Shown: positions 2,023 through 41,717 of the stretch, one piece after another
How positions within the stretch are numbered: the first letter of the stretch is position 1
Layout: every line of letters begins with the position of its first letter
Source: a virus
Taxonomy: Duplodnaviria > Caudoviricetes
Virus record (IMG/VR): IMGVR_UViG_3300032225_001614
Location: 1-63,971 of that record
DNA: 63,971 nt
Strand: one strand, 5' to 3'
Made by a program: the position numbers and the translations under genes
The notes under the pieces: model-generated
What the model saw: only the letters and a program-made list of their open reading frames with translations
Database searches by the model: none
Told to the model about the DNA's origin: nothing

Positions 2023-2376
2023 TTAATTTTTAATTTCATTAATATCAACTATTTTAACATCTTCACCATTTAACATTGCATCTATTGTTAATTCTATTAT
2101 ATCCCTTTGTTCTGGATTTAACAATGCAACCTTTTCCACTATAGCTGGAACGGCAAAAACATCACTACGAATTTCTTTTTTAATTCCATCCCTAACTTCT
2201 TTAGTAAGAAATGGATGCGAAGAAATGTCTGTAAAAATCCAATCTATTTTTCTGCTATATAACTTAAACAATTTAGATCCTTGAGATTCTGGAAACTCTC
2301 TAATAAAATCTTCAAATTGCTCTTGTGCCATTTTTAAATTCTGAATAGCACTAACAATATTTGCTCCTTTAGCCAT
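2023..2376 (-). CDS. Hypothetical protein
   Basis: 117-aa ORF coupled to its neighbours. Confidence 0.7.
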   Translation of the reverse strand: MAKGANIVSAIQNLKMAQEQFEDFIREFPESQGSKLFKLYSRKIDWIFTDISSHPFLTKEVRDGIKKEIRSDVFAVPAIVEKVALLNPEQRDIIELTIDAMLNGEDVKIVDINEIKN

Positions 2377-3109
2377 TATTAAAATTTAAATGTGTTGATT
2401 CTATTTCGTGTAAAAAATCTCTTGCAGATAAAACTTTTTGCTGAATCCTTAATATATCATCTTCATTTCTTGGAACGTGAAACATTAAAACTCTTTCAGC
2501 AATATCTATATCATCAAATTTCATATTAAACTCTATGTTTATTGCTGCTTTTAAAAACTCTGGACTATCTTCTGAAATTACATCCATTTTTTTAAGAAGG
2601 TAATACTTTTCTTGCTCTACAATACTATCAGGTGTACTAACTAAGCAATAAGCAATAGTAGCTCTCTTTGCTCCTGTAAGCCACATATAAGACTGCATTT
2701 GCCAATAGTATAAACTATCCAACTTATCAGGCATATTGCCTAGAAATGTCCATAAATCATAACTAGACTTAATATCAATGATAGCAACTCCATCTGAAGT
2801 AGTTTCAATAATATCTGGATGCCCGGTAATGTAATCATTGGAAAATCTTTCTTCATTTTTCTGAAAATCTCTATTAAGGTATTTAGATAACAAATTAATT
2901 GAATCCTGTTCAGCGTCTATTCCTTTCTTCATTTGCTTGGTTTGTATATCTCTTTTACGACCATACCTTTCTGATATATAAACATCTAAAAGATATTTTT
3001 GCGTTGTCTTAGATAACCTACCAGCATCTTTGTCTGCTTTTGATTGTGGATCTGTCATTAAATACCCAACAGAACTAGCTCTTATTAAGGTTTCAGAAAA
3101 ATTAATCAT
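2369..3109 (-). CDS. YqaJ/lambda-Exo-like recombination exonuclease
   Basis: RASS...KGIDAE...GHPDII...IDIKSS...YYWQMQSYMWLTG motifs. Confidence 0.85.
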   Translation of the reverse strand: MINFSETLIRASSVGYLMTDPQSKADKDAGRLSKTTQKYLLDVYISERYGRKRDIQTKQMKKGIDAEQDSINLLSKYLNRDFQKNEERFSNDYITGHPDIIETTSDGVAIIDIKSSYDLWTFLGNMPDKLDSLYYWQMQSYMWLTGAKRATIAYCLVSTPDSIVEQEKYYLLKKMDVISEDSPEFLKAAINIEFNMKFDDIDIAERVLMFHVPRNEDDILRIQQKVLSARDFLHEIESTHLNFNNG

Positions 3110-3763: not shown

Positions 3764-4309
3764 TTACTTCTGTAAAATGAATTTCTTTTTTACTAAGTTT
3801 AGCTTTGATCTATATTCAATAATCAAAGATTTAAGCTCGTCTTTTGTAGGTTTATTAATTTGCCTGGCTAGCTCTTTTAAATATTCAACAACTGCATTGT
3901 TTTCTTCGTGTAATTTCTCTTCAAATACTTCTAGGTTACCCATTTTAAAGTAGTTATCATCCATACTTTGTGGCCTGCAATTTGCTTCTAACCACCTGGT
4001 TCCTAAGTTTGCTCTTGGTATAAAATGACCGCATTGTATCTCAGTCCATTTTAGTTTTTTACCTGATGTATAACACTCTACAATACCTTCCTTATCAGCA
4101 TATTTACATCTTATATATTGGCTAAAAACATAATCTAAATCACTTACTAAATTTTGAAAACTCTCTGCATCTTCTTCAAATTCATCCATTCTTTTGCTTG
4201 TGCTAAATACAATTGCGCATTGTTTACACATCTTTTTTGAAAAATGATAATCAATATTTCCGCAATTTACGCAGCGTTTCTTCTTAACAATAATGGTACT
4301 ATTTCTCAT
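3764..4309 (-). CDS. ninG: NinG/Rap-like recombination endonuclease
   Basis: LDYVFSQYIR...CYTSG...QCGHFIPR...TRWLEANCRPQ...N; extra N-terminal Cys4 zinc ribbon. Confidence 0.8.
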   Translation of the reverse strand: MRNSTIIVKKKRCVNCGNIDYHFSKKMCKQCAIVFSTSKRMDEFEEDAESFQNLVSDLDYVFSQYIRCKYADKEGIVECYTSGKKLKWTEIQCGHFIPRANLGTRWLEANCRPQSMDDNYFKMGNLEVFEEKLHEENNAVVEYLKELARQINKPTKDELKSLIIEYRSKLNLVKKKFILQK

Positions 4310-4434
4310 TCAGTTAGTTTATGTAATTCTCCATTAATAAATTTAAACTTTCCAATATAAATATCATCTCTCCATACTTCTATTACCATATCTAATCTCT
4401 TCGCCATTTCATAAACCATTTCTCTATTTTCCAT
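4306..4434 (-). CDS. Small hypothetical protein (42 aa, not in ORF track)
   Basis: MENREMVYEMAKRL...; ATGA overlap with ninG; ATG 4 nt after a TATCTTTG element. Confidence 0.55.
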   Translation of the reverse strand: MENREMVYEMAKRLDMVIEVWRDDIYIGKFKFINGELHKLTE

Positions 4435-4438
4435 AAAT

Positions 4439-4533
4439 CAAAGATATAAATTAATTTAATTAAAACAAACTTTTTTATAAAAAAATAAAATTATATTTTT
4501 TTTTGCATTATCAAATATTTGCATTTACATTTG
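4439..4533. promoter_or_regulatory. Divergent promoters: minus TTTG-N19-TATCTTTG (4439-4469), plus TACATTTG (4526-4533)
   Basis: Bacteroidota consensus between divergent operons. Confidence 0.65.
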
Positions 4534-4554
4534 TATTTCATTAAATTAATTATT

Positions 4555-4749
4555 ATGGAAAAAGAACAAGAATTACTTTTTCATCAAAAGGTTAAAATAG
4601 CCTTAGATGGCAGGAAAAACAAATGGCTTGTTGAACGATCTGGAATTCAATCTTCTGAAATTTCAAGAATATTAAATGGAAGATTAATACCTACTGACAG
4701 GCAAATAGAAAAAATTAGAGCCGCATTTCCTTTTAACGTAAATTTCTAA
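4555..4749 (+). CDS. Cro/XRE-family HTH regulator
   Basis: KWLVERSGIQSSEISRILNGRLIPT; ATG 4555 preferred. Confidence 0.8.
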   Translation: MEKEQELLFHQKVKIALDGRKNKWLVERSGIQSSEISRILNGRLIPTDRQIEKIRAAFPFNVNF

Positions 4750-4758
4750 AATTGTCTT

Positions 4759-5499
4759 ATGGCAAGACCTATAAAAAATTATTGTGAATATTTTCCTCAT
4801 GATAGGGATATGAGAAATCATAGGAAAGTAAAAGCTATTAGAACAAAATTTGGTGCAATAGGATATGCTATTTGGTCTATGATATTAGAGTATTTAACAG
4901 GCATTGACGGTAATGAATTTGAATATTCTGATGTAGAATTAGAACTAATGGCAGGTGATTTTGGAGTTTCTGTAGCAGAAATACGGAACGTGATTGATTA
5001 CTGCATCAAACTGGAGATGCTATTTAATAATAATGGTTTTATTAACTCAGAATCACTTGATGAAAGATTAAAACCTGTATATGAAAAAAGAGGTAAAAGT
5101 AAGGATTTATGTAAGAAACAACAACGCAACAACGGTAAATTTATATCCAATAACACCGTATCTATCGGAGTTTCTGCTACAGAAATGCCGCAAAGTAAAG
5201 TAAATAAAAGTAAAGTAAATAAAAAGATAGGTTATAGGGATAATATATTTTTGTCTGAAAAAGAACATGAACAATTAATTGTTGATTTTGGTAAAGAAAA
5301 AGTTGAAAATATTTATAATTTTCTTAATTCTTACAAAATAGAAAAGTCTTATAAAACAAAATCAGATTACCTAACCATAAGAAGATGGGTTGTAGATGCT
5401 GTTTTAAAGCAAAATAAGACCACTTCTATACAAAATGGCAATACTTATCAAGATAAAGTAAGAGAAGCTGCAATTAACTTTAAACCACTACCACAATGA
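4759..5499 (+). CDS. DUF4373/Lin1244-like replication initiator
   Basis: YFPHD...KVKAIRTKFGAIGYAIWSMILEYL N-terminus; SKVNKSKVN linker; located upstream of the helicase. Confidence 0.75.
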   Translation: MARPIKNYCEYFPHDRDMRNHRKVKAIRTKFGAIGYAIWSMILEYLTGIDGNEFEYSDVELELMAGDFGVSVAEIRNVIDYCIKLEMLFNNNGFINSESLDERLKPVYEKRGKSKDLCKKQQRNNGKFISNNTVSIGVSATEMPQSKVNKSKVNKKIGYRDNIFLSEKEHEQLIVDFGKEKVENIYNFLNSYKIEKSYKTKSDYLTIRRWVVDAVLKQNKTTSIQNGNTYQDKVREAAINFKPLPQ

Positions 5500-7358
5500 T
5501 AACAATTTTTAAGAATATCTTTTCAAAGGAGCCGCATTACATAACTGTAGAGGAAGCCTTGAATAGAATTCAAACTGGAAAGAGTAAACAAATAGTTTCT
5601 GAAATAAGAAATACACTCGATAAGGAAAAAGCAAATAAGATTAAGGCGAATCTACCATCTGTTTGTTTTAGTGGTCAATTTGGTTCAGATAGAAAGGATG
5701 AACAATTGATTTTACATAGTGGATTTATTGTTTTGGATTTTGATGATGTTTCTGAATTAAGAGAAAAGCAAACAGAGATAATTTCTAATAAGTTTGTTTA
5801 TGCTTGTTGGATAAGTCCTTCTGGTAAAGGATTGAAAGCTCTTATTAGAATTGCTGATGGTTCAAAACATAGAGAGCATTTCCAGGCATTACAAGAAGTT
5901 TTTCCTGAAATAGATAGAAGTGGCATTAATCCTAGCAGAGTTTGTTATGAAAGCTATGATACTGAAATTTATGTAAATAAAAACGCTGAAATATTCAAAA
6001 AGGTTAAAAAAACTGAAAAAATAGTAACTTATGAAAGAACTGATGATGAACAAAAGATATTTAAAAACATTTTAACTTGGTTATCGAATAAAAATGAAGC
6101 GTTTGTAACAGGAGAGAGAAATAATTTTATTTTTAAGTTAGCATCTGCTTGTTGTAGGTTTGGTATTAATGAATTTTCTGCTAATGCAATGATTAGCAAT
6201 GAGTTTATATCAAATTCAGAGTTCACAAAAAATGAGGCGGATCGCGCGGTAAAATCCGCGTACCGAATAAATGCATCAAGATTTGGTAGTGCATCATTTG
6301 ATAAAGAGATGTTAATTGACAAAGTTACAAGACAAGAATTACAGGTAGATAAGGCTGTTTTTGATGAAGGGATTAAGTTAAAAGATGTTATTTATGGAAT
6401 TGATGTAAAAGAACAAGCATTAAGTATTTATGATAGTGGTTATGCGCAGGTAGATGGAATTGGAGTGCCTGATTTAGATGATAAATTTAAGCCAAAAAGA
6501 GGTGAGATTACAGTTCTTACCGGAATAGGCAATTATGGTAAATCTTCTTTCAAGAAATGGTATCAGGCAATGCGAATTCTTATATATGGAGAAAAATTTG
6601 CTTCTTTTGCTCCTGAAGATAATCCTCCCGAAGAATATTACCACGATTATGTTGAAATTATATTAGGCTGCGATTGTAGTCCATCAAATCCAAATAGACC
6701 ATCAAGACAAGTTTATGAATCAGTATATGATTTAGTATGTAAGCATGTTTTTTATGTTTATCCAAAAGATGTTTCACCTACTCCCCAATATGTTATGGAG
6801 GTATTTTTAGAATTAATTATTAAAGAACATATTGATGGAGTGGATATTGATCCTTTTAATCAAATGACAAATAATTATCAAAACTTTGCAGGCAGAGATA
6901 AGTATCTCGAGTGGGTTTTAACATTGTTTTCTAGGTTTGCTCAAATAAATAATGTTTACTTTTGGATAGTAGCACATCCAGTCAAAATGCAAAAAGGAGC
7001 AGATGGAAATTATCCTTGTCCAGATGTATTTGATTTAAGTGATGGTGCAATGTGGTCAAATAAAATGGATAATATTTTAGTTTATCATAGACCTTTTGCT
7101 CAAACAGATCCACAAAATCCTACTTGTGAATTTCATAGTAAAAAAATTAGAAGGCAAAAAGTAGTTGGTAAAAAAGGTTTTATCATATTTGAAATGCTAT
7201 TCAGAACAAGAAGATTTTTCGTTAATGGTTTAGATCCATTGCAAAAATGTCTTAATGACCAAAATGTAGATTTTAAACAAAAGGCTCCCACCCAACAGGT
7301 TATTGACGCAGGATGGGTTCCTTTTAAAGATGAAAATGGTGAAGAAAATATTTTTTAA
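5496..7358 (+). CDS. Primase-helicase (BT4734/VirE-N-like domain + PriCT-like domain + SF4-type helicase)
   Basis: LPSVCFSG...HSGFIVLDFD...SPSGKGLK; GERNNFIFKLA; Walker A GIGNYGKS; IDPFN; VAHP. Confidence 0.8.
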   Translation: MITIFKNIFSKEPHYITVEEALNRIQTGKSKQIVSEIRNTLDKEKANKIKANLPSVCFSGQFGSDRKDEQLILHSGFIVLDFDDVSELREKQTEIISNKFVYACWISPSGKGLKALIRIADGSKHREHFQALQEVFPEIDRSGINPSRVCYESYDTEIYVNKNAEIFKKVKKTEKIVTYERTDDEQKIFKNILTWLSNKNEAFVTGERNNFIFKLASACCRFGINEFSANAMISNEFISNSEFTKNEADRAVKSAYRINASRFGSASFDKEMLIDKVTRQELQVDKAVFDEGIKLKDVIYGIDVKEQALSIYDSGYAQVDGIGVPDLDDKFKPKRGEITVLTGIGNYGKSSFKKWYQAMRILIYGEKFASFAPEDNPPEEYYHDYVEIILGCDCSPSNPNRPSRQVYESVYDLVCKHVFYVYPKDVSPTPQYVMEVFLELIIKEHIDGVDIDPFNQMTNNYQNFAGRDKYLEWVLTLFSRFAQINNVYFWIVAHPVKMQKGADGNYPCPDVFDLSDGAMWSNKMDNILVYHRPFAQTDPQNPTCEFHSKKIRRQKVVGKKGFIIFEMLFRTRRFFVNGLDPLQKCLNDQNVDFKQKAPTQQVIDAGWVPFKDENGEENIF

Positions 7359-30505: not shown

Positions 30506-33500
30506 ATGGAAGATATAAACGTAAATAGTCAAGATCCAATTAATAAAACTAAGATATTGTATGATGCAGTATCTAAAGATTATAATGTTGGTTCGTTTGA
30601 TGAATTTTCAAAAAAACTTCAAGATCCATCAAAAAGAGAAGCTTTTTATAAAGGAGTAGGAAGTGAATATAATTTAGGTTCTTACGATGAATTTTCTAAA
30701 AAAATTGGTCTTGTTGAAAAAAAAAATCTTGGTGGCACTCTTTCCCCTACAGAATTACCTGCAAGTTTACCTTCTCAATTACCAAAAAGACTTAATGTAG
30801 ATGTTTTAGCTTATGCTGATGATGGTCAAAAAGCAGCAGCTCCACAACCAACTACTATAACGGAAAAGTTATTTGGTAATGTCAGACCTGAAAAGCAAAA
30901 ACTAGATGTAACTCCTAAAGTTAGAAATGTAGAAAAAGAAATAGAAGCAGAACAAACAGGAAAGAAAATAACTTCAGATGCCATTAATAATACTGTTAAG
31001 GCCTATAAAGATAGACTAAGTGGAGATGGAGCATATAAAATATCAGATACAGATCCTGCTCTTATTAATCAAAAAAATGACTTAGAAAAAGATTTAAAAG
31101 AAGGTAATTTACAAGTAGTAAAAAGCCAAAAAACAGGTCAATATATATTAGCTAGAAAAAATGGCGCTCTTCAAAGTATTTCTCAAGCATATAACAATGT
31201 AAAAGAAAAAGAAGCAGACGATAAATATGTAGCAAGTCTTAGTACAATAGATAAGATAAAACATTTTGATAATAAAGCAGCTTTAGTTAAAGACGAATAT
31301 TTACCTTCTCAACCATCAGGTTTTGGCGGTGCTTTTGGTACTCTTATAGGTGAAAATGCAACTCCATTAGTTAAGATGGGAGCTATGGCAACTGCTGCCG
31401 GTAAGGTCGGTGAATATTTAGGATTAACTGGTACTGCTTTAGCAAATGCTGAAAAATTTGGTTCATTCCTTGCTTTTGCCAACGATGCAGGATATAGTGG
31501 ATATTCTAATAATACAGAAAAAGTTTACAATGCACTTCGTAAACAAAACCCAAATGGCGATAAGATAGACCAAATGCAACGTGCCGAAAGAGCAGGGTTA
31601 GTTGGAGAAGTATCAGGTATAGCAACAGCAGGTGCCATGACAGGTGCTTTTGCTAAATTAACCAATGCGGCTAAAAACGTAAATGTTCAGCCATTAGTTA
31701 GTTCGCTTGAGCAATTGGCGCATCATACTGTAAAAGAATCTGCTATTCAAGGTGGATTTGCGGCAGGCGGTTCTCTTGTATCTGACTTAGGAGCAATTAG
31801 TCAAGGGGTTAAGATGAAGCCATCAGAAGTGGTTGGAAATGCATTTGAAGCAGGTAAAGGAATGGCGGAATTTACATCAGTAATGGGTTCGGCTATGGGT
31901 ATTGTGGCAGGATTAGCAAATGTTCCTAAATATGTAAAAGCTCAAGCAACAGGAACTTTGGCTAAATTAGATCCTGTATTAGTTAATGATGCATATAAAG
32001 AAGCAGAAGCAAATGGAGCATTAGATCCCGGTACTGCTGAAAAAGCTATGCAGCAAATTAATGGATTTAAAGAAGCGAAAAATAAAGTTCCTACTGATTT
32101 GCCTGACGAAAATGTAAATGCAATTGCAGGTATTCAACAAAAAATAGATAAGTTAGAAGCACAAAAGAAAACATTAGCACCACAATTCCATGATAGAATT
32201 GATGCTGTTATTGATTCACTTAGAAATAGGTCAAAAGAAATAGCGTCAACCGATAAGCCATTAGAAAAAGAAGTAGATGATATAACTCAACAGCCTACAA
32301 ATGTAAGGATAGAACCTGCTGTAGAAGAAAAGCCAATAGATATTAAAGTTGGAGATGAAGTAAATGTAACAGCAGCAGATGGGACAATTTTAGGAGAAAA
32401 AACAAAAGTAACTGCAATAAGTCCTGATAATAAATTTATACAAACAGAATTGGGTAATGCTTATGTTCCTGCTGAACAAATAGAATTACCGAAAGCGAAA
32501 GAAGAAGTTAAACCTACTGAAGTAAAAGATGGGTTTGATTATGTTAGAAATAAATTTATGAAAGATGGTAGTGGTGGTAAAAGATTATCAGATAAAGAAT
32601 CAAACATATTAAATAAAGAAGTAGATAAGCTTATCGAAAGAGCTGAAAAAGAAAATGGAGTAAAAAGAAATGAACTTAAACAATCAACTTGGAAAACTAA
32701 TGATGGTTATACTATAAATGAATTTTTTGAAAATGGTCGTGGTGGAACAAGAGTAATAACTCCAAAAGGAGAAGAAATAAATTTATTTGACAATAAATAT
32801 AAAGGTGAAAGTGGAAAAGATATTTCTTATTTTCCAAAAGCACATGAAGAAGTTAAACCTACTGAAGTAAAAGAAACAGCTAAATTACTTGAAAATAAAA
32901 TAAAAGAAAATTCAAGTGCATTTGATAAAATAAAAGATAAAATATCTAAATTTTCTTTAAATGATATAAAAGAGTTTTTTCATGCATCTGAAAGTAAAAG
33001 AATTGGAAAATTAAAGAAAGGGGAAGCTGCACAATTTGGAGAAGGTATTTATTTTTCTACTGATAAGGATACTGTAAAAGATAATTTTGGAGAAGAAGTA
33101 ACAAATGTATTGTTAAACATAGAAAATCCTGTATTTACTAATACGAAAGAATGGAATAAAGTAGAAGATTTAGCACTTAAAATGGCTAATGAAGGAAAGC
33201 GAATAGATGAAGATGGTTATATAGAAGGCGGTGAAACTGATATAGCTGAAATTAAGCCTAAGTTTATTTCAAATGCAGCAAAAGAACTTGGATATGATGC
33301 TATTGTAGATAAGAATAGCCAACATGGTAATGAAATATCAGTAATAGATGATTCTAAAATAATTTATGAAGAAGATTTACCAAAAGCCATTGCTGAAGCA
33401 TATCATAAAGCTAAAATAGATGGAAATAATCCTGAATTAGTAAAATCAGTAGAAGAGCAATTAAAACCAAAAGAAAAAGTTAAAAATGAAGTAGAAGTTT

Positions 33501-35068
33501 TTCATGGCGGAACGATAGATAAACCAGAAGATTTAGCTGAAGGAGAGCCATTATTTGTATCAGAAAGCAAGTCGCAAGCGAAAGAATACACTAAAGAAAA
33601 CGAAGGGAAAGTAAAAGGATTTAAAATTGACAAAAACAAAATTGCAACCGAAGAAGAAGCGAGGGATGTAATTAAAAAACTAGATTTAAAACCTAAAGAA
33701 GAAGGTTGGGATGCAGAGGAATTGAATTTATTTGAATTAATAGATCCAAAATTTGAAACATCATTAAGTGAAGATGATATTCAAAAAGTTTTCAATGAGT
33801 TAAAGAAAAAAGGTTATGAAGGTGTTTCTTTTATGGACACAAATCTTAAAACGCTTAAACAAGATATTCAGAATATTGCAATTTTTGATCCAAAAGAAAC
33901 TTTATTTAAAGAAAAACCAAAAGAAAATGCCATACAAAAGCCAAGCACAGGAGAGGTTCTTCAACGCGAACCGAAAACAACTAGAATCGAAGGGGGTGAA
34001 CGTGGAAGAGTGGAACCAAGCAAGCAAGGGGAAGCAATTGCCGAAAAAGGTAAGCAAGTTGAAGGCAATGAAGAAGAAGTAAAACCAAAAGAATATACTT
34101 CTAAAACAGGCAGACAAAAAATAGTATATGATGAAAAAGGTAACTCTAAAGTAATTGATACTAAAACAGGTAAAGAGGTTAGTCGTGAAACAGCTAAAAA
34201 AGTGTATAATGAAGCTGCGGATAATTATGATTTTTCAAAAGGCAAAAAAGCATCTTTTGAAGGCGCAGAACTGAAAGACGAAAGAGAAGTTGAAAACTAT
34301 ACAATAGACAATAGCTCTAATCCAGCAGAAATTGCAGAAGTATATGCTAGACAAGAACTAGAGCCACCTTCATTAAATAGTGCCGAAGCCGCAATAGTAA
34401 ATCATGGTATCGGAAAGGTAGATGTAAAAAGTTTCAAAAGATTTAATGATGAAAATAATATAACATTTGGTTTAGCTAAAAATTGGTTTCAAAAAGGCGG
34501 AAAAGGATCTAAATTAGATGCCATAGCCGAAGAAATTTCAGCAAAAACAGGTGTAAATGTAACCCCAGAAGATATAGGGAATTTCATGGTTAGATTTCCA
34601 TCAGGCGCAAGAGCTGAAAAATTAGTAGAAAATGATATTGCTTATAATGCTAGAAATAAATTTGAAAAATTAACAGGGCTACCATTAACAGAAGAGATAG
34701 CTCACAAAGCCATAGACTATGAATTTAATAAACTTACTAAGGAACAACAAGCCATTGCAGAACAAGACTCCAAAACAAGAAAACAACTTGAAGATGCCTA
34801 TTGGGCAGAACAACCAGGAGCCATTAAGCCTGCTCCAGAAAAAGGCAATAATATTGCAGCTAAGCAGGCAAGAAAAGCCGAAAAAGGATTAAAAGAACCT
34901 ATTGTAGAGAAAAAACCTCTTGAGGGTATTCAGCAAGAATATCAAGAAGTTATAAATAAAACAGGCGAAAAGGTTAGAGAAAAAGCAAAATTAGAATTTG
35001 TAGAACGTAACTTTGATTCTATATTAGATAAATTAAAAGAAAAAATTAAAGAAAAATGTCCAACGTAA
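30506..35068 (+). CDS. Giant polyvalent ejection protein with two ADP-ribosyltransferase-like domains
   Basis: FHAS...GEGIYFS...GYDAI and FHGG...LFVS...GYEGV...AIFD modules; Gly/Ala-rich hydrophobic region. Confidence 0.65.
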   Translation: MEDINVNSQDPINKTKILYDAVSKDYNVGSFDEFSKKLQDPSKREAFYKGVGSEYNLGSYDEFSKKIGLVEKKNLGGTLSPTELPASLPSQLPKRLNVDVLAYADDGQKAAAPQPTTITEKLFGNVRPEKQKLDVTPKVRNVEKEIEAEQTGKKITSDAINNTVKAYKDRLSGDGAYKISDTDPALINQKNDLEKDLKEGNLQVVKSQKTGQYILARKNGALQSISQAYNNVKEKEADDKYVASLSTIDKIKHFDNKAALVKDEYLPSQPSGFGGAFGTLIGENATPLVKMGAMATAAGKVGEYLGLTGTALANAEKFGSFLAFANDAGYSGYSNNTEKVYNALRKQNPNGDKIDQMQRAERAGLVGEVSGIATAGAMTGAFAKLTNAAKNVNVQPLVSSLEQLAHHTVKESAIQGGFAAGGSLVSDLGAISQGVKMKPSEVVGNAFEAGKGMAEFTSVMGSAMGIVAGLANVPKYVKAQATGTLAKLDPVLVNDAYKEAEANGALDPGTAEKAMQQINGFKEAKNKVPTDLPDENVNAIAGIQQKIDKLEAQKKTLAPQFHDRIDAVIDSLRNRSKEIASTDKPLEKEVDDITQQPTNVRIEPAVEEKPIDIKVGDEVNVTAADGTILGEKTKVTAISPDNKFIQTELGNAYVPAEQIELPKAKEEVKPTEVKDGFDYVRNKFMKDGSGGKRLSDKESNILNKEVDKLIERAEKENGVKRNELKQSTWKTNDGYTINEFFENGRGGTRVITPKGEEINLFDNKYKGESGKDISYFPKAHEEVKPTEVKETAKLLENKIKENSSAFDKIKDKISKFSLNDIKEFFHASESKRIGKLKKGEAAQFGEGIYFSTDKDTVKDNFGEEVTNVLLNIENPVFTNTKEWNKVEDLALKMANEGKRIDEDGYIEGGETDIAEIKPKFISNAAKELGYDAIVDKNSQHGNEISVIDDSKIIYEEDLPKAIAEAYHKAKIDGNNPELVKSVEEQLKPKEKVKNEVEVFHGGTIDKPEDLAEGEPLFVSESKSQAKEYTKENEGKVKGFKIDKNKIATEEEARDVIKKLDLKPKEEGWDAEELNLFELIDPKFETSLSEDDIQKVFNELKKKGYEGVSFMDTNLKTLKQDIQNIAIFDPKETLFKEKPKENAIQKPSTGEVLQREPKTTRIEGGERGRVEPSKQGEAIAEKGKQVEGNEEEVKPKEYTSKTGRQKIVYDEKGNSKVIDTKTGKEVSRETAKKVYNEAADNYDFSKGKKASFEGAELKDEREVENYTIDNSSNPAEIAEVYARQELEPPSLNSAEAAIVNHGIGKVDVKSFKRFNDENNITFGLAKNWFQKGGKGSKLDAIAEEISAKTGVNVTPEDIGNFMVRFPSGARAEKLVENDIAYNARNKFEKLTGLPLTEEIAHKAIDYEFNKLTKEQQAIAEQDSKTRKQLEDAYWAEQPGAIKPAPEKGNNIAAKQARKAEKGLKEPIVEKKPLEGIQQEYQEVINKTGEKVREKAKLEFVERNFDSILDKLKEKIKEKCPT
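32501..32874 (+). repeat. 29-bp exact direct repeat (32501-32529, 32846-32874) flanking an in-frame module
   Basis: GAAGAAGTTAAACCTACTGAAGTAAAAGA twice, 345 nt apart. Confidence 0.9.
33927..34082 (+). CDS. Probable nested small basic protein in an alternative frame
   Basis: MPYKSQAQERFFNANRKQLESKGVNVEEWNQASKGKQLPKKVSKLKAMKKK; A-rich start context; resembles MP(F/Y)KSxAQ small phage proteins as I recall them. Confidence 0.6.
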   Translation: MPYKSQAQERFFNANRKQLESKGVNVEEWNQASKGKQLPKKVSKLKAMKKK

Positions 35069-35556
35069 AATCATTATTGAGTGCAACCATGAAAAAGTGG
35101 TTGCAAAAATCAATAGAAAGCGAATTATATGCTTCTAATTTTTATAAGCATGCAGCCAATCAATTACAAAGATTAGGTTTTTTTGGTGCTCAAAAATATT
35201 ATTTAACTGAAAGCGCAGACGAACTTGAGCATTATCAAGGAGTAGTTGATTTTGTTAATGATATGGGTGATGTGGCAAGTGTTCCAAAGGTAGATGCAAT
35301 AACAGATAAGATTCAATCTATTGGAGATTCATTAGACTTAGCTTATGAATTAGAATTAGATTTATTTAATCAGTATAAAGAATTCTATGAAATTGCTGAA
35401 GATGAAGATGTGGCTGTTGCAGAATTTTTACTTAAATATATCAAAATTCAAAGAAAATCTGTTGGTCAATACGGAGATTTAATTTCTCGTTATCAAAAAT
35501 GTGGCGAAAACGAAGCTGCAATTCTTGGGTTTGACCACTATCTATCAAAATTATAA
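35056..35556 (+). CDS. Ferritin (non-haem, FtnA-like)
   Basis: ELYASNFY...ESADELEH...AYELE...FL...IQ four-helix ferroxidase pattern. Confidence 0.85.
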   Translation: MSNVKSLLSATMKKWLQKSIESELYASNFYKHAANQLQRLGFFGAQKYYLTESADELEHYQGVVDFVNDMGDVASVPKVDAITDKIQSIGDSLDLAYELELDLFNQYKEFYEIAEDEDVAVAEFLLKYIKIQRKSVGQYGDLISRYQKCGENEAAILGFDHYLSKL

Positions 35557-38613: not shown

Positions 38614-38668
38614 TTTTTTGAATAATATACCTATAAATTTCTTATATTTGGAGTAAAATTTAAGCACA

Positions 38669-39755: not shown

Positions 39756-41717
39756 GTGAGCCTTCAAAATATAATTAGTGGTGCATTAAAATTAAGAAAC
39801 GAAAATGGTGTCTTAGTTGCCATTGATGGTATTGTTTCGGCAGATACTTCTGGAACAATAGGAACATCTGGTTCTAGTGGTACAAGTGGATCTAATGGTT
39901 CAAATGGTACAAGTGGAACTAGCGGAACAACAGGAACGAGTGGAACAAGTGCGACTAGTGGTACAAGTGGAAGTTCAGGTATAGATGGTACTTTTGGCAC
40001 TTCAGGCACAAGTGGCTCTTCGGCAACAAGCGGAACAACAGGCACAGGAGGTACTTCTGGTACATCGGGTACATCAGCTACAAGTGGCTCAAGTGGAACA
40101 ACAGGTACTAGCGGTTCAAGTGGAACTAGTGGGAGTTCAGGAACTAGTGGTACAACAGGCACTTCAGGTACAAGTGCAACTAGTGGGAGTTCAGGAACAA
40201 GTGGTACAAATGGAACCGGTGGAACTAGTGGAACATCTGGTTCTTCAGGATCTAGTGCTACATCAGGTACTAGTGGTTCAACAGGAACTAGTGGTACATC
40301 TGGAAGTAGCGGAACAGCAGGCACTAGTGGAACAACAGGCACTAGTGGAACAAGTGGTACAGGTGGTACATCTGGAGTTAGTGGTATAAGTGCAGGTCAA
40401 ATATATTATCTAAATCAATCTATACTTACAAATACAAACTTCGGTACTCCTACTTATAAGCAAATGTCAACTTTGACATCAGGAGCTGCTGAGCAAACAC
40501 TTGTATTTTCTGTTCCTGCAAATTCAACAGGAAATCTATGGCAAACATTTGCTACAAATAGTAATGTTCCAAATTTAACATTATTGCCTTCAGGTATATG
40601 GGGGTATAATGTAAATATTTTATCAAATGTTACTCATACCCCAGATATATCTATTTACGCACAATTGTATAAATATACAATAGGTGGTGTATCAACTTTG
40701 ATTGCAACATCAGGAGTTGTTCCATTGATAAGAAGTGCTAGTATTACATCTTATTATTTTGATGGTTTTGTGCCATCAACAACAATGAATTTAACAGATA
40801 GATTATATGTTAAATTATTTGCAAATAATAGTAGTGTAGGAGCTGATTCATTCACTTTTTATACAGAAGGTTCTGCTAATTATTCTTATATAACAACATC
40901 ATTAAATGCTCCTTCAGGAACAAGTGGTAGTAGTGGTACATCAGGAGTAAATGGAACTAGTGGTACATCAGGTTCTACAGGAACTAGTGGCTCAAGTGGG
41001 GTGAGTGGTTCTAGCGGTACAACAGGTACATCTGGAACAACAGGTACTAGTGGCTCTTCAGGAACTAGTGGAACTTCTGCTACCAATGGTACAGGTGGAA
41101 CTAGTGGAACTTCGGGTTCAACAGGAACTAGCGGAACTAGTGGCACAACAGGAACTTCAGGTTCTAGTGGCACAAGTGGCACATCTGCAACAAGTGGAAC
41201 TACAGGTACAAGTGGAACTTCTGCAACAAGTGGAAGCAGTGGAACTAGTGGCGGAACAGGAAGTTCTGGCTTAAGTGGATCCAATGGAACTTCGGGAACT
41301 AGCGGAACAACAGGAACAAGCGGTTCATCAGGAACGAGTGGTGGAACAGGAAGTTCTGGTTTGAGTGGCTCTAATGGAACTTCAGGAACTAGTGGAACAA
41401 CAGGAACAAGCGGCACATCAGGAATTGGAAATCCTGTTATATTAATATCCGTATCTGGTACACAAAATAGCGTTAATAAAACCTTTACACTAGCAAGTAT
41501 CCCAACAGGTATTACACAACAGTTTTTTATAAATGGTCAATTAATGACCTATACAAGTGATTATACATTTTCTAGCACTACATTAACCATTTCATCAGAA
41601 AGACCTGCACCAAGTGCAACAGATATATTATTATTTTATGGTTCTACTGGAAGTGGTGGAAGTGGTGGAACTACAAATATTTTACAGGTAGCATTAATTT
41701 CACAAGTTTTTGGATAA
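39756..41717 (+). CDS. Collagen-like (Gly-Thr-Ser)n fibre protein
   Basis: Two long, mostly Gly-X-Y tracts (~39850-40395, ~40915-41425) with X/Y almost only Ser/Thr, separated by a globular domain. Confidence 0.8.
   Translation: MSLQNIISGALKLRNENGVLVAIDGIVSADTSGTIGTSGSSGTSGSNGSNGTSGTSGTTGTSGTSATSGTSGSSGIDGTFGTSGTSGSSATSGTTGTGGTSGTSGTSATSGSSGTTGTSGSSGTSGSSGTSGTTGTSGTSATSGSSGTSGTNGTGGTSGTSGSSGSSATSGTSGSTGTSGTSGSSGTAGTSGTTGTSGTSGTGGTSGVSGISAGQIYYLNQSILTNTNFGTPTYKQMSTLTSGAAEQTLVFSVPANSTGNLWQTFATNSNVPNLTLLPSGIWGYNVNILSNVTHTPDISIYAQLYKYTIGGVSTLIATSGVVPLIRSASITSYYFDGFVPSTTMNLTDRLYVKLFANNSSVGADSFTFYTEGSANYSYITTSLNAPSGTSGSSGTSGVNGTSGTSGSTGTSGSSGVSGSSGTTGTSGTTGTSGSSGTSGTSATNGTGGTSGTSGSTGTSGTSGTTGTSGSSGTSGTSATSGTTGTSGTSATSGSSGTSGGTGSSGLSGSNGTSGTSGTTGTSGSSGTSGGTGSSGLSGSNGTSGTSGTTGTSGTSGIGNPVILISVSGTQNSVNKTFTLASIPTGITQQFFINGQLMTYTSDYTFSSTTLTISSERPAPSATDILLFYGSTGSGGSGGTTNILQVALISQVFG

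Follow-up and report, generated by a model that had tools for sequence, protein, structure and literature searches.

The locus considered here raises the question of whether a 51-aa open reading frame (ORF) lying inside the coding sequence of a giant virion-module protein is a gene in its own right, read in a different frame from its host, or an accident of sequence. The window, which is the whole 63,971-bp stretch of the IMG/VR virus record IMGVR_UViG_3300032225_001614, is rated 100% complete, and the ORF is its only copy of the protein family described below. Comparison with related phages indicates that the segment at 33927-34082 is, very probably, a genuine coding gene lying within the giant gene in frame +1, with both readings used. 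The dual-coding region proposed in a preliminary description is supported by homologues, by intact nested frames, by substitution ratios, and by an open giant frame.

Table 1. Coordinates of the nested gene, its host, and associated features in the window.
Feature	Coordinates	Strand	Description
Giant host ORF	30506..35068	+	1520 aa, uninterrupted; virion structural module
A-rich, weakly structured leader	33891..33926	+	Inside giant CDS; proposed Shine-Dalgarno-independent initiation site
Dual-coding island	33913..34084	+	G+C 0.46 vs 0.31 for the window
Nested small gene	33927..34082	+	51 aa; predicted three-helix N-terminal domain and basic tail; MPYKS family
Gap before 178-aa gene	38614..38668	.	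Free-copy site in L002, L007, L014, L016, L057, and others; empty here

The small ORF runs from an ATG at 33927 to a TAA at 34080-34082 and lies wholly within the giant ORF on the same strand, with 3421 giant bases before it and 986 after it. Since (33927-30506) mod 3 = 1, it occupies frame +1 of the giant ORF; the coordinates and translation agree with the preliminary description. Between its flanking stops the small frame spans 92 open codons, the longest such stretch in the two alternative forward frames of the giant (the runner-up in +1 spans 58 codons, and the longest in +2 spans 30). An upstream ATG at 33816 would extend the product to 88 aa; the 37 additional residues have no counterpart in relatives, and a stop occurs no more than 10 codons upstream of the small-gene ATG in 16 of 23 nested loci. 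ORFs of 30-57 aa occur commonly in the alternative frames of the giant, as would be expected if this one had opened by chance. However, the window fits the family profile (from alignment A2) with E = 1.5e-30, the match covering exactly 33927-34079 and positions 1-51 of the 52 in the profile, and the product has hundreds of homologues, which refutes a chance origin and leaves it next to no probability.

The predicted product belongs to a large, unnamed family of ~50-aa phage proteins ('MPYKS') whose N-terminal motif is M-P-Y-K-S. Among called proteins, the window peptide had 73 small matches (best E 4e-17), and the 71 that scored E<1e-5 are 60-88% identical to it. An exhaustive profile search found 1494 cluster representatives that pass E<=1e-3, of which 456 also pass E<=1e-10. 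Across 77 family sequences, P2, S5, Q8, V26, E28, G35, and P39 are invariant and M1, Y3, K4, F12, W29, and N30 are near-invariant; the window peptide has every one of these residues. Free forms of 46-60 aa are common, and among the top 150 representatives there are 77 longer than 110 aa, 75 of which carry the domain within their first 60 residues. Such long forms were represented by two hits in a word-based search, whereas the exhaustive profile search found them to be common. The domain heads many otherwise unrelated large phage proteins, with bodies that include NUDIX, DUF6321, and glycine-rich hydrophobic segments, and the gene always sits in packaging or virion modules.

Assignment to a named family was attempted at several levels. 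Pfam and PHROGs searches with the peptide and 77 family members returned no family, with phrog_25121 at E 0.24 as the only entry listed. DUF3008 (PF11450) proteins are short and have an M-P-x-K-S-like start, resembling the MPYKS family, and one of the 30 nearest Atlas clusters (score 0.89) has DUF3008 in 15% of its members. However, the Pfam model matches none of the 77 members, nor the window peptide, at E<=1, so that by Pfam's own test the peptide is not a DUF3008 member. In tblastn and blastn searches against 50,697 GenBank phage records, the peptide, a 2-kb stretch, and the neighboring 178-aa protein were all unmatched, and the peptide of a related locus (L002) gave a single marginal match (E 0.8). 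As far as these sequence searches reach, the family appears to be found in metagenomes only, with no cultured phage among the GenBank phage records carrying it. The fold prediction gives three short helices and, after them, a disordered tail rich in lysine, with a conserved module of ~45 aa; a fold search with the AF2 model (mean pLDDT 78) gave a best E of 7.8 in PDB and of 0.25 in BFVD, where all matches were uncharacterised proteins. Neither the family nor the arrangement turned up in searches, mainly of open journals, for work on overlapping or nested genes in phages and on polyvalent proteins, so that an earlier description is possible.

The state of the gene in relatives was surveyed across the best 80 of 351 confirmed IMG/VR loci. 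In 57 of these the gene lies outside any covering ORF, which, together with the 73 small called proteins, provides the stand-alone homologues anticipated in the preliminary description; in the other 23 it lies wholly inside a giant ORF on the same strand. The nested frame, which could have proved broken in relatives, is intact in all 23. With the window included, all 24 nested copies occupy frame +1, all retain the ATG and the stop of the small gene, and none has a stop in the -1 frame across the small ORF, the covering frame extending 49-1999 codons upstream and 319-2004 codons downstream. By contrast, the 57 free loci have 1-47 stops in the matching -1 frame. In an independent collection, 3 of 20 loci were nested, although two of these look like L034 and L038 again.

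A comparison of these relatives indicates that both readings of the overlap are kept by selection. The small frame is conserved as protein to nearly the same degree in both states, with a pairwise amino acid identity of 0.718 for nested and 0.721 for free copies. In nested copies, dNN/dSN is 0.13-0.14 in the small frame, whereas over the same bases dNN/dNS is 1.22-1.37 in the giant frame, the ratios having been derived from substitution classes on non-independent pairs with the synonymous class near saturation (dSN 1.1-1.6). Thus, the expectation that the nested frame would be the more constrained one was borne out, and the giant frame over the overlap appears to be free of amino acid constraint. 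The signature of the giant frame lies instead in composition. At small-frame third positions, nested copies have 1% T and 49% G, as compared to 25% T and 20% G in free copies from equally AT-rich loci, and this drop in T indicates that the giant frame is kept open. Likewise, in 22 of 24 nested copies the ORF has a G+C of 0.45-0.53 within a locus of 0.31-0.43, whereas free copies match their locus.

This composition also bears on the suggestion that the giant is not one gene but two genes flanking the small one, with the frame between them open by accident or through misassembly. The C-terminal domain of the giant does occur without the nested segment in close relatives, and in three loci (L010, L023, and L051) the large ORF begins only ~50 codons before the small gene. 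However, no stop is present that could end the upstream reading, and the frame is open in 24 independent assemblies where AT-rich free copies have 5-14 stops, in addition to the near-loss of third-position T. Even in L010, L023, and L051, the 45-49 residues preceding the small gene are conserved as protein and start with an ATG right after a stop. A split giant is therefore considered most unlikely.

The region preceding the small gene is consistent with independent initiation. The A-rich tract noted in the preliminary description is real: the 20 bases before the ATG (-20..-1) are 75% A, a value reached by 0.3% of giant positions and by 1 of 106 other ATGs in the giant. The minimum free energy (MFE) of the segment from -30 to +30 is -0.1 kcal/mol, whereas the background within the giant averages -5.2. 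For every one of the 24 nested copies, the upstream A fraction exceeds the giant mean and the local MFE is weaker than the giant mean (mean -3.5 vs -8.3 kcal/mol), and 10 of the 24 have a stop 0-1 codons ahead of the ATG. Shine-Dalgarno-like motifs, found at 4 of 24 nested loci, occur at the chance rate of the giant-ORF background (0.08-0.21) and so add nothing to the evidence for a start. Because such a motif precedes none of the 40 window genes, an A-rich unstructured leader appears to be the usual start of this phage. The small protein would accordingly be translated from its own ATG after the A-rich leader. A look-up of RNA runs containing this stretch listed none.

Conservation of the segment could in principle reflect a silent relic, or selection at the level of DNA or RNA, such as on a recombination module or an mRNA structure. 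In metagenome contigs, 33913-34084 is a conserved block with unlike sequence on both sides, as a recombining module would be, with loose ends before 33913 in contigs X4 and X13 and behind 34084 in X2 and X13 (seen in contigs only). In contrast to what a relic or a nucleic acid element would show, substitutions concentrate at small-frame third positions (0.252, 0.160, and 0.383 at positions 1, 2, and 3), the small-frame ratio is 0.13, the ATG and stop are universally kept in nested copies, and the ATG region has less predicted structure than the sequence around it. Furthermore, the phage has no second copy of this gene, which is retained by its syntenic relatives. Such an explanation is thus very unlikely, and a protein-coding gene is preferred.

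A further possibility is that ribosomes starting at MPYKS enter the giant frame by a -1 shift close to where the small ORF ends, so that the domain heads the last ~330 residues of the giant, perhaps beside a free 51-aa protein. The required shift is -1, the usual direction of frameshifting in phages, and a product of this kind would resemble the 77 long forms described above, 75 of which have the domain within their first 60 residues. A-runs arising from the lysine-rich tail (A AAA AAG or A AAA AAA) also occur near the stop in L023, L025, L029, and L051. However, an X XXY YYZ heptamer in the small frame is present in only 9 of 24 nested copies, as against 12 of 52 free copies; its position varies (codon 35, 44, 45, or 55), and it is absent from the window. 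Regions of the 24 giants on either side of the overlap show no BLASTP similarity (E<=1e-4) to the bodies of the 77 long forms, and the common free forms of 46-60 aa imply that the domain works alone. Since the domain is so often the N-terminus of a large protein, a fused product may also be made here, but frameshifting is regarded as an improbable account of the locus as compared to a separately initiated nested gene.

If the nested gene is real, what does the giant protein do with the same bases? Giant residues ~1141-1192 are read from the bases of the small gene, one base earlier, and the giant-frame stretch there reads ENAIQKPSTGEVLQREPKTTRIEGGERGRVEPSKQGEAIAEKGKQVEGNEEEV, in agreement with the preliminary description. 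The giant gene, whose product is a putative ejection protein in that description, lies between virion structural genes on one side and tail-fiber genes on the other, and its only significant family match is phrog_24532 (function unannotated), at residues 11-73. Its C-terminal domain (residues 1191-1520) is 41-43% identical to giants of syntenic phages that lack the nested gene. The linker-like character ascribed to the overlapped stretch agrees with these homologues, since the sequence is unrelated there in L009 and the alignment begins at residue 1191 in L002, and likeness among giant proteins is restricted to the overlapped stretch. The small frame would carry the information, in the form of the conserved ~45-aa module, and the giant frame would read the overlap as a Glu/Gly/Gln-rich spacer between folded parts of a 1520-aa protein, needing merely to stay open and linker-like.

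Synteny bears on how the arrangement came about. The gene is nested in the window and in L001, whereas eight relatives (L002, L007, L009, L012, L014, L016, L019, and L057) have a giant homologue without the nested gene and carry it as a free copy immediately before the 178-aa gene, a site 3.6 kb downstream of the nested position. In some relatives the small gene lies 3-14 bases behind the giant gene, and in others it is absent from the giant. The preliminary description held that the small gene had been engulfed by the giant one. Synteny is consistent with that part of the claim; the direction of change is unproven, since the best peptide tree (44 columns) needs 11 state changes, well-supported branches force only one, and this poor resolution makes it compatible with one or many origins and with either direction. 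Nevertheless, the arrangement would most likely have arisen through the extension of a large reading frame across a small gene that was already present.

The closest familiar arrangement is lambda Rz1 inside Rz, an embedded spanin gene on the same strand, in the +1 frame and with its own start, where both products are needed. To our knowledge, out-of-frame nested genes in tailed phages are textbook material for the lysis cassette alone. The present locus is similar in that a small gene lies wholly inside a larger one on the same strand and in frame +1, with its own start predicted. It differs in that the host is a 1520-aa virion-module gene rather than a lysis gene, the embedded gene has many free relatives, and the host frame over the overlap is without amino acid constraint. 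The 51-aa peptide has no cysteine, and hence no lipobox cysteine or lipoprotein signal, and no hydrophobic signal, so that it is not an o-spanin of the Rz1 type.

Overlapping genes are also known to arise by overprinting, a subject of two reviews (PMC8227390, PMC3494269). In overprinting, as in phiX174 E within D and many RNA-virus cases, the embedded ORF is young and restricted to one lineage. Here, as in those cases, two proteins share one stretch in different frames, with composition skewed by double constraint. In contrast, the embedded ORF in this locus is widespread and probably the old one, with the host linker as the probable young reading; a de novo overprinted origin was rejected, given that the family consists mostly of free-standing proteins and of domains at the head of other proteins. 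An embedded ORF older than its host linker would amount to overprinting in reverse, by read-through or fusion across a small neighbor.

A third parallel concerns function. Iyer et al. in 2017 are said to have described phage-delivered multidomain 'polyvalent' proteins with N-terminal anchoring modules such as MuF. The MPYKS domain is comparable as one short module heading unrelated large proteins in packaging or virion modules. It differs in having no sequence or fold similarity to the named modules and in being a predicted separate polypeptide here. On the basis of its N-terminal position in many unrelated large proteins and its constant association with packaging or virion modules, the small protein could, at a guess, serve to dock or target proteins carried in the virion; this prediction is plausible but short of an even chance. 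Still more tentative, and on balance doubtful, is the broader picture of an ancient stand-alone gene swallowed, perhaps repeatedly, by giant virion genes in uncultured phages likely infecting Bacteroidota, with a product that may partner the giants. A partner of this type, acting for example in docking or capsid targeting and made from the same mRNA, would explain why the gene occurs free, behind giants, fused to the heads or tails of large proteins, and nested.

This study suggests that a nested gene inside a giant virion gene recurs in about three of ten sampled relatives (among the best 80 of 351 loci) with a clean codon-level signature of double coding, and that gene callers systematically miss a real and conserved gene in these genomes. 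The nested and free copies of the same protein constitute a natural paired set for measuring the cost of overlap in each frame, and the usual history of overlap appears to be reversed, with the embedded gene as the old one. The unnamed family, comprising at least 1494 sequence clusters known from metagenomes only, occurs in free, fused, and nested states that hint at a role beside large virion-delivered proteins. If this history is true, fusion across a neighboring gene would represent a general and unannotated route for the growth of large genes in dsDNA phages, the reverse of overprinting.

The 51-aa peptide quoted in the preliminary description was confirmed as the translation of a small ORF lying wholly within, and on the same strand as, the uninterrupted giant ORF of the virion structural module, in frame +1, i.e., one base ahead. 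Between its flanking stops, the small frame runs open for 92 codons; the second-longest open run in the +1 frame of the giant gene is 58 codons, and the longest in its other alternative frame is 30 codons. The simplest account of the ORFs on the opposite strand is that they come with a stop-poor, G+C-rich dual-coding island.

Coordinates of features in the window and in related viral loci (L-numbers)
Sequence	Feature	Position	Strand	Details
Window	Nested small gene	ATG 33927, TAA 34080-34082	+	51 aa
Window	Giant ORF	30506-35068	+	1520 aa
Window	Opposite-strand ORFs	33902-34117	-	one of 71 aa and two of 35 aa, over nested gene
Window	Giant N-terminal motifs	30506-30730		residues 11-73; two ~30-aa copies, YNVGSFDEFSKKL and YNLGSYDEFSKKI
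Window	EEVKPTEVK, twice in giant	~32480-32830		residues ~660-775, ~110 residues apart
Window	GEGIYFSTD in giant	~32990-33020		residues ~830-840
Window	Block in contig joins	33913-34084		
Window	Giant/next gene overlap	35056-35068		last 13 bases of giant gene
Window	Next gene	35056-35556		166 aa, phrog_16594
Window	Terminase	11544		
Window	Portal	13655		
Window	Tail fibre	39756-41717		collagen-like repeats
L100	Fusion protein	4021-6162		713 aa, family domain C-terminal
L037	Free small gene	3853-4035		
L049	Free small gene	2320-2502		
L043	Free small gene	2704-2880		
L044	Long form	6001-6936		domain N-terminal
L045	Long form	6001-6645		domain N-terminal
L064	Long form	6001-7356		domain N-terminal

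Stand-alone homologues, as stated in the preliminary description, do exist: on metagenome contigs, 73 small proteins of 44-87 aa, each predicted as a gene in its own right, matched the peptide, 71 having E<1e-5 and 60-88% identity. This homology excludes a chance ORF. In an alignment of 77 members, P2, S5, Q8, V26, E28, G35 and P39 are invariant and M1, Y3, K4, F12, E20, G23, V24, W29, N30, S33, K34 and L38 nearly so. Searched with the family profile, 1.84 billion cluster representatives yielded 1494 hits at E<=1e-3 and 456 at <=1e-10. Pfam yielded no match to the peptide and none above noise for the 77 members, PHROG only a non-significant row for the peptide and nothing at E<=0.01 for the members, and the GenBank phage records contained no family member; as far as these libraries show, the family is known from uncultured viruses only. 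An Atlas hint pointed towards DUF3008, which we took the peptide to resemble; membership was rejected, with 0 of 77 members recovered in Pfam's own test. AlphaFold2, run with the alignment, predicted three short helices (residues 6-14, 16-22 and 26-33; pLDDT 83-90 across residues 1-30) and a lysine-rich tail of low confidence, with no fold match to the model in PDB or BFVD.

Of 599 stretches matched in an IMG/VR scan, 351 were confirmed, and the best 80 were analyzed by counting stops across the small ORF in the frame one base behind it. The counts were bimodal: 23 loci and the window have none, and in the other 57 loci the frame is broken by 1-47 stops (5-14 where, as in the window, the locus is AT-rich). 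The relative frame is identical in all 24 nested copies, in each of which the other alternative frame holds 1-7 stops; the open frame extends 49-1999 codons upstream and 319-2004 downstream, several ending at the edge of the fetched locus. That a giant gene was split or misassembled is contradicted by these 24 independent open frames, as well as by the loss of third-position T described below. In an independent collection (genome_contigs), three of 20 confirmed loci, all on MAG contigs, are nested in large ORFs, two of these resembling L034 and L038 again; another locus of this collection, L100, has the domain fused in frame to the end of its 713-aa protein.

Mean pairwise identity of the small protein is nearly the same in 23 distinct nested and 42 distinct free copies (0.718 vs 0.721). 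When substitutions were classed by their effect in both frames, the nested set gave dNN/dSN of 0.13-0.14 for the small frame and dNN/dNS of 1.22-1.37 for the giant frame, and the free set gave 0.07 (pairs up to 25% divergence) and 0.81-0.94, the latter being the expectation for a non-coding frame; these ratios are rough, because pairs are non-independent and the synonymous class is near saturation. The direction is clear: the small frame is the constrained reading in nested copies, as had been anticipated. Its third position, which is the first position of the giant frame, differs less between nested than between free copies (0.383 vs 0.584). Among AT-rich loci, third-position composition is A.39, C.16, G.20 and T.25 in 31 free copies and A.23, C.27, G.49 and T.01 in 22 nested copies; as a result, G+C is locally raised in nested ORFs (0.46 vs 0.31 in the window) but not in free copies, which match their own locus. 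With T at this position, the giant frame would in most cases read TAA, TAG or TGA, indicating that selection is holding the giant frame open across the overlap. Giant proteins resemble one another only across the overlap, and the similarity is lost gradually in either direction. Two observations contradict a silent relic or nucleic-acid element: how changes are distributed over codon positions, and the lack of any second family copy in the phage, the window being a whole virus record (63,971 bases, rated 100% complete).

From sequence features, we infer that the nested gene is expressed; a look-up of RNA runs found none containing the stretch. Its ATG is kept in 24/24 copies, and a small-frame stop lies 0-1 codons upstream in 10 of them, so that a frameshift out of the giant reading farther upstream could not yield the peptide there. 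The A-rich tract of the preliminary description is borne out (75% A in the 20 bases preceding the ATG, a level reached at 0.3% of positions in the giant gene and before 1 of 106 other ATGs there), and the A fraction exceeds the giant's mean in 24/24 loci. Predicted structure at -30..+30 is likewise weaker than the giant's mean in all 24 (means, -3.5 vs -8.3 kcal/mol; window, -0.1 vs -5.2 kcal/mol). No SD-like motif precedes any of 40 window genes, which fits the leader-dependent initiation known for Bacteroidota; such motifs before the nested ATG (4/24 loci, the chance rate) were dropped as evidence for a start.

A -1 shift from the small into the giant frame would copy the in-frame fusions common in the family: 77 of the top 150 of the 1494 representatives exceed 110 aa, with the domain in the first 60 residues of 75; beyond it, these proteins carry, among others, NUDIX, DUF6321 and glycine-rich hydrophobic segments. 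Such a shift is nevertheless very improbable, as slippery heptamers occur in only 9/24 nested copies (12/52 free), at varying places and not in that of the window, and the bodies of the 77 long forms have no BLASTP similarity to the giants' flanks. In the long forms L044, L045, L064 and P0076, the N-terminal domain precedes glycine/alanine-rich hydrophobic segments, each ending in basic residues, that resemble membrane-spanning or glycine-zipper stretches; a short Cys-Trp-x-Gly-Tyr-Glu ... Gly-Ser-Cys module is common to L045 and L064. L100, with a P-loop (GxxGxGKS-like) segment and no M-P-Y-K-S start, is the sole clear C-terminal fusion among loci seen; P0147 (586 aa) looks similar.

The giant gene sits within a tightly packed structural block of overlaps or few-base gaps, in a window that also encodes terminase, portal, virion proteins and a tail fibre. 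In the window and L001, the giant with its nested gene is followed by genes for 166, 1015, 178 and 175 aa. The giant homologue of L002, L007, L014, L016 and L057 lacks the nested gene, and a free small gene stands between the 1015- and 178-aa genes; the order in L009, L012 and L019 is giant, 1015, 166, free small gene, 178, 175. In L010 and L023, the 166-aa gene is followed by a different large ORF, whose nested small gene lies ~50 codons in, and then by 178 and 175. These two and L051 are true overlaps too, since conservation at the protein level covers the 45-49 residues ahead of the nested gene, and these residues start at an ATG directly following a stop. Alignment of the giant's C-terminal part to L002 and L007 begins at residue 1191-1193, just past the overlap; in place of the overlap, L009 has unrelated sequence. 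In G+C-richer phages, the free gene lies between large terminase and portal or just before terminase; in L049, L043 and L037 it shares ~100 bases, again in that relative frame, with the open 5' end of a downstream ORF, which is the portal gene in L049 and an unannotated large ORF in L043; the L037 locus ends too early to classify the overlapped ORF. The L049 portal match begins only at residue 67, so the true start may follow the overlap. Such partial overlaps could be intermediates towards nesting.

Elsewhere in the giant, the sole significant hit to a family falls at residues 11-73 (phrog_24532, unknown function; E 1.4e-24). A shortened EVKPKE lies just 3' of the nested gene in the giant frame, and the L002 alignment starts at EVKPTE; these EEVKPTEVK-type repeats may be linker or domain-boundary signatures of a mosaic protein. 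GEGIYFSTD resembles the Gly-x-Gly-x-Tyr-Phe motif of ADP-ribosyltransferase/PARP-like domains; Pfam and PDB sequence searches with the giant returned no match. The tail fibre matches many PHROG tail-fibre families, and alternative-frame ORFs of 134-192 aa on both of its strands are probably artefacts of repeat composition.

Among free-standing relatives, a large ORF (940-1990 aa; in L009, L012 and L019, the 166-aa gene instead) ends 3-14 bases before the small-gene ATG, so that extension of a large gene across the adjacent small one, in that presumed direction, would be a short step. A 44-column peptide tree, which cannot count origins, needs 11 state changes vs 18.7 in shuffles, its supported branches forcing only one. 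Contigs from four metagenome runs that join the overlap block to unlike sequence on either side hint at a conserved module in a mosaic gene.

The arrangement is like that of embedded spanins (Rz1 in Rz), but the peptide has no cysteine or signal sequence and is thus not a spanin, and the host is a virion gene. Unlike in classical overprinting, the embedded reading is old and widespread and the host's reading of the shared bases is young and unconstrained. In the literature listings and abstracts covered, neither family nor arrangement was found described. The domain is found as a free protein with a basic tail, immediately downstream of giant genes, nested within them, as the N-terminal part of many otherwise unrelated large proteins and, once, as a C-terminal part, always in packaging or virion modules. 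This gene context tentatively suggests that it might serve as a module that docks or targets proteins which are incorporated into the virion or delivered from it.
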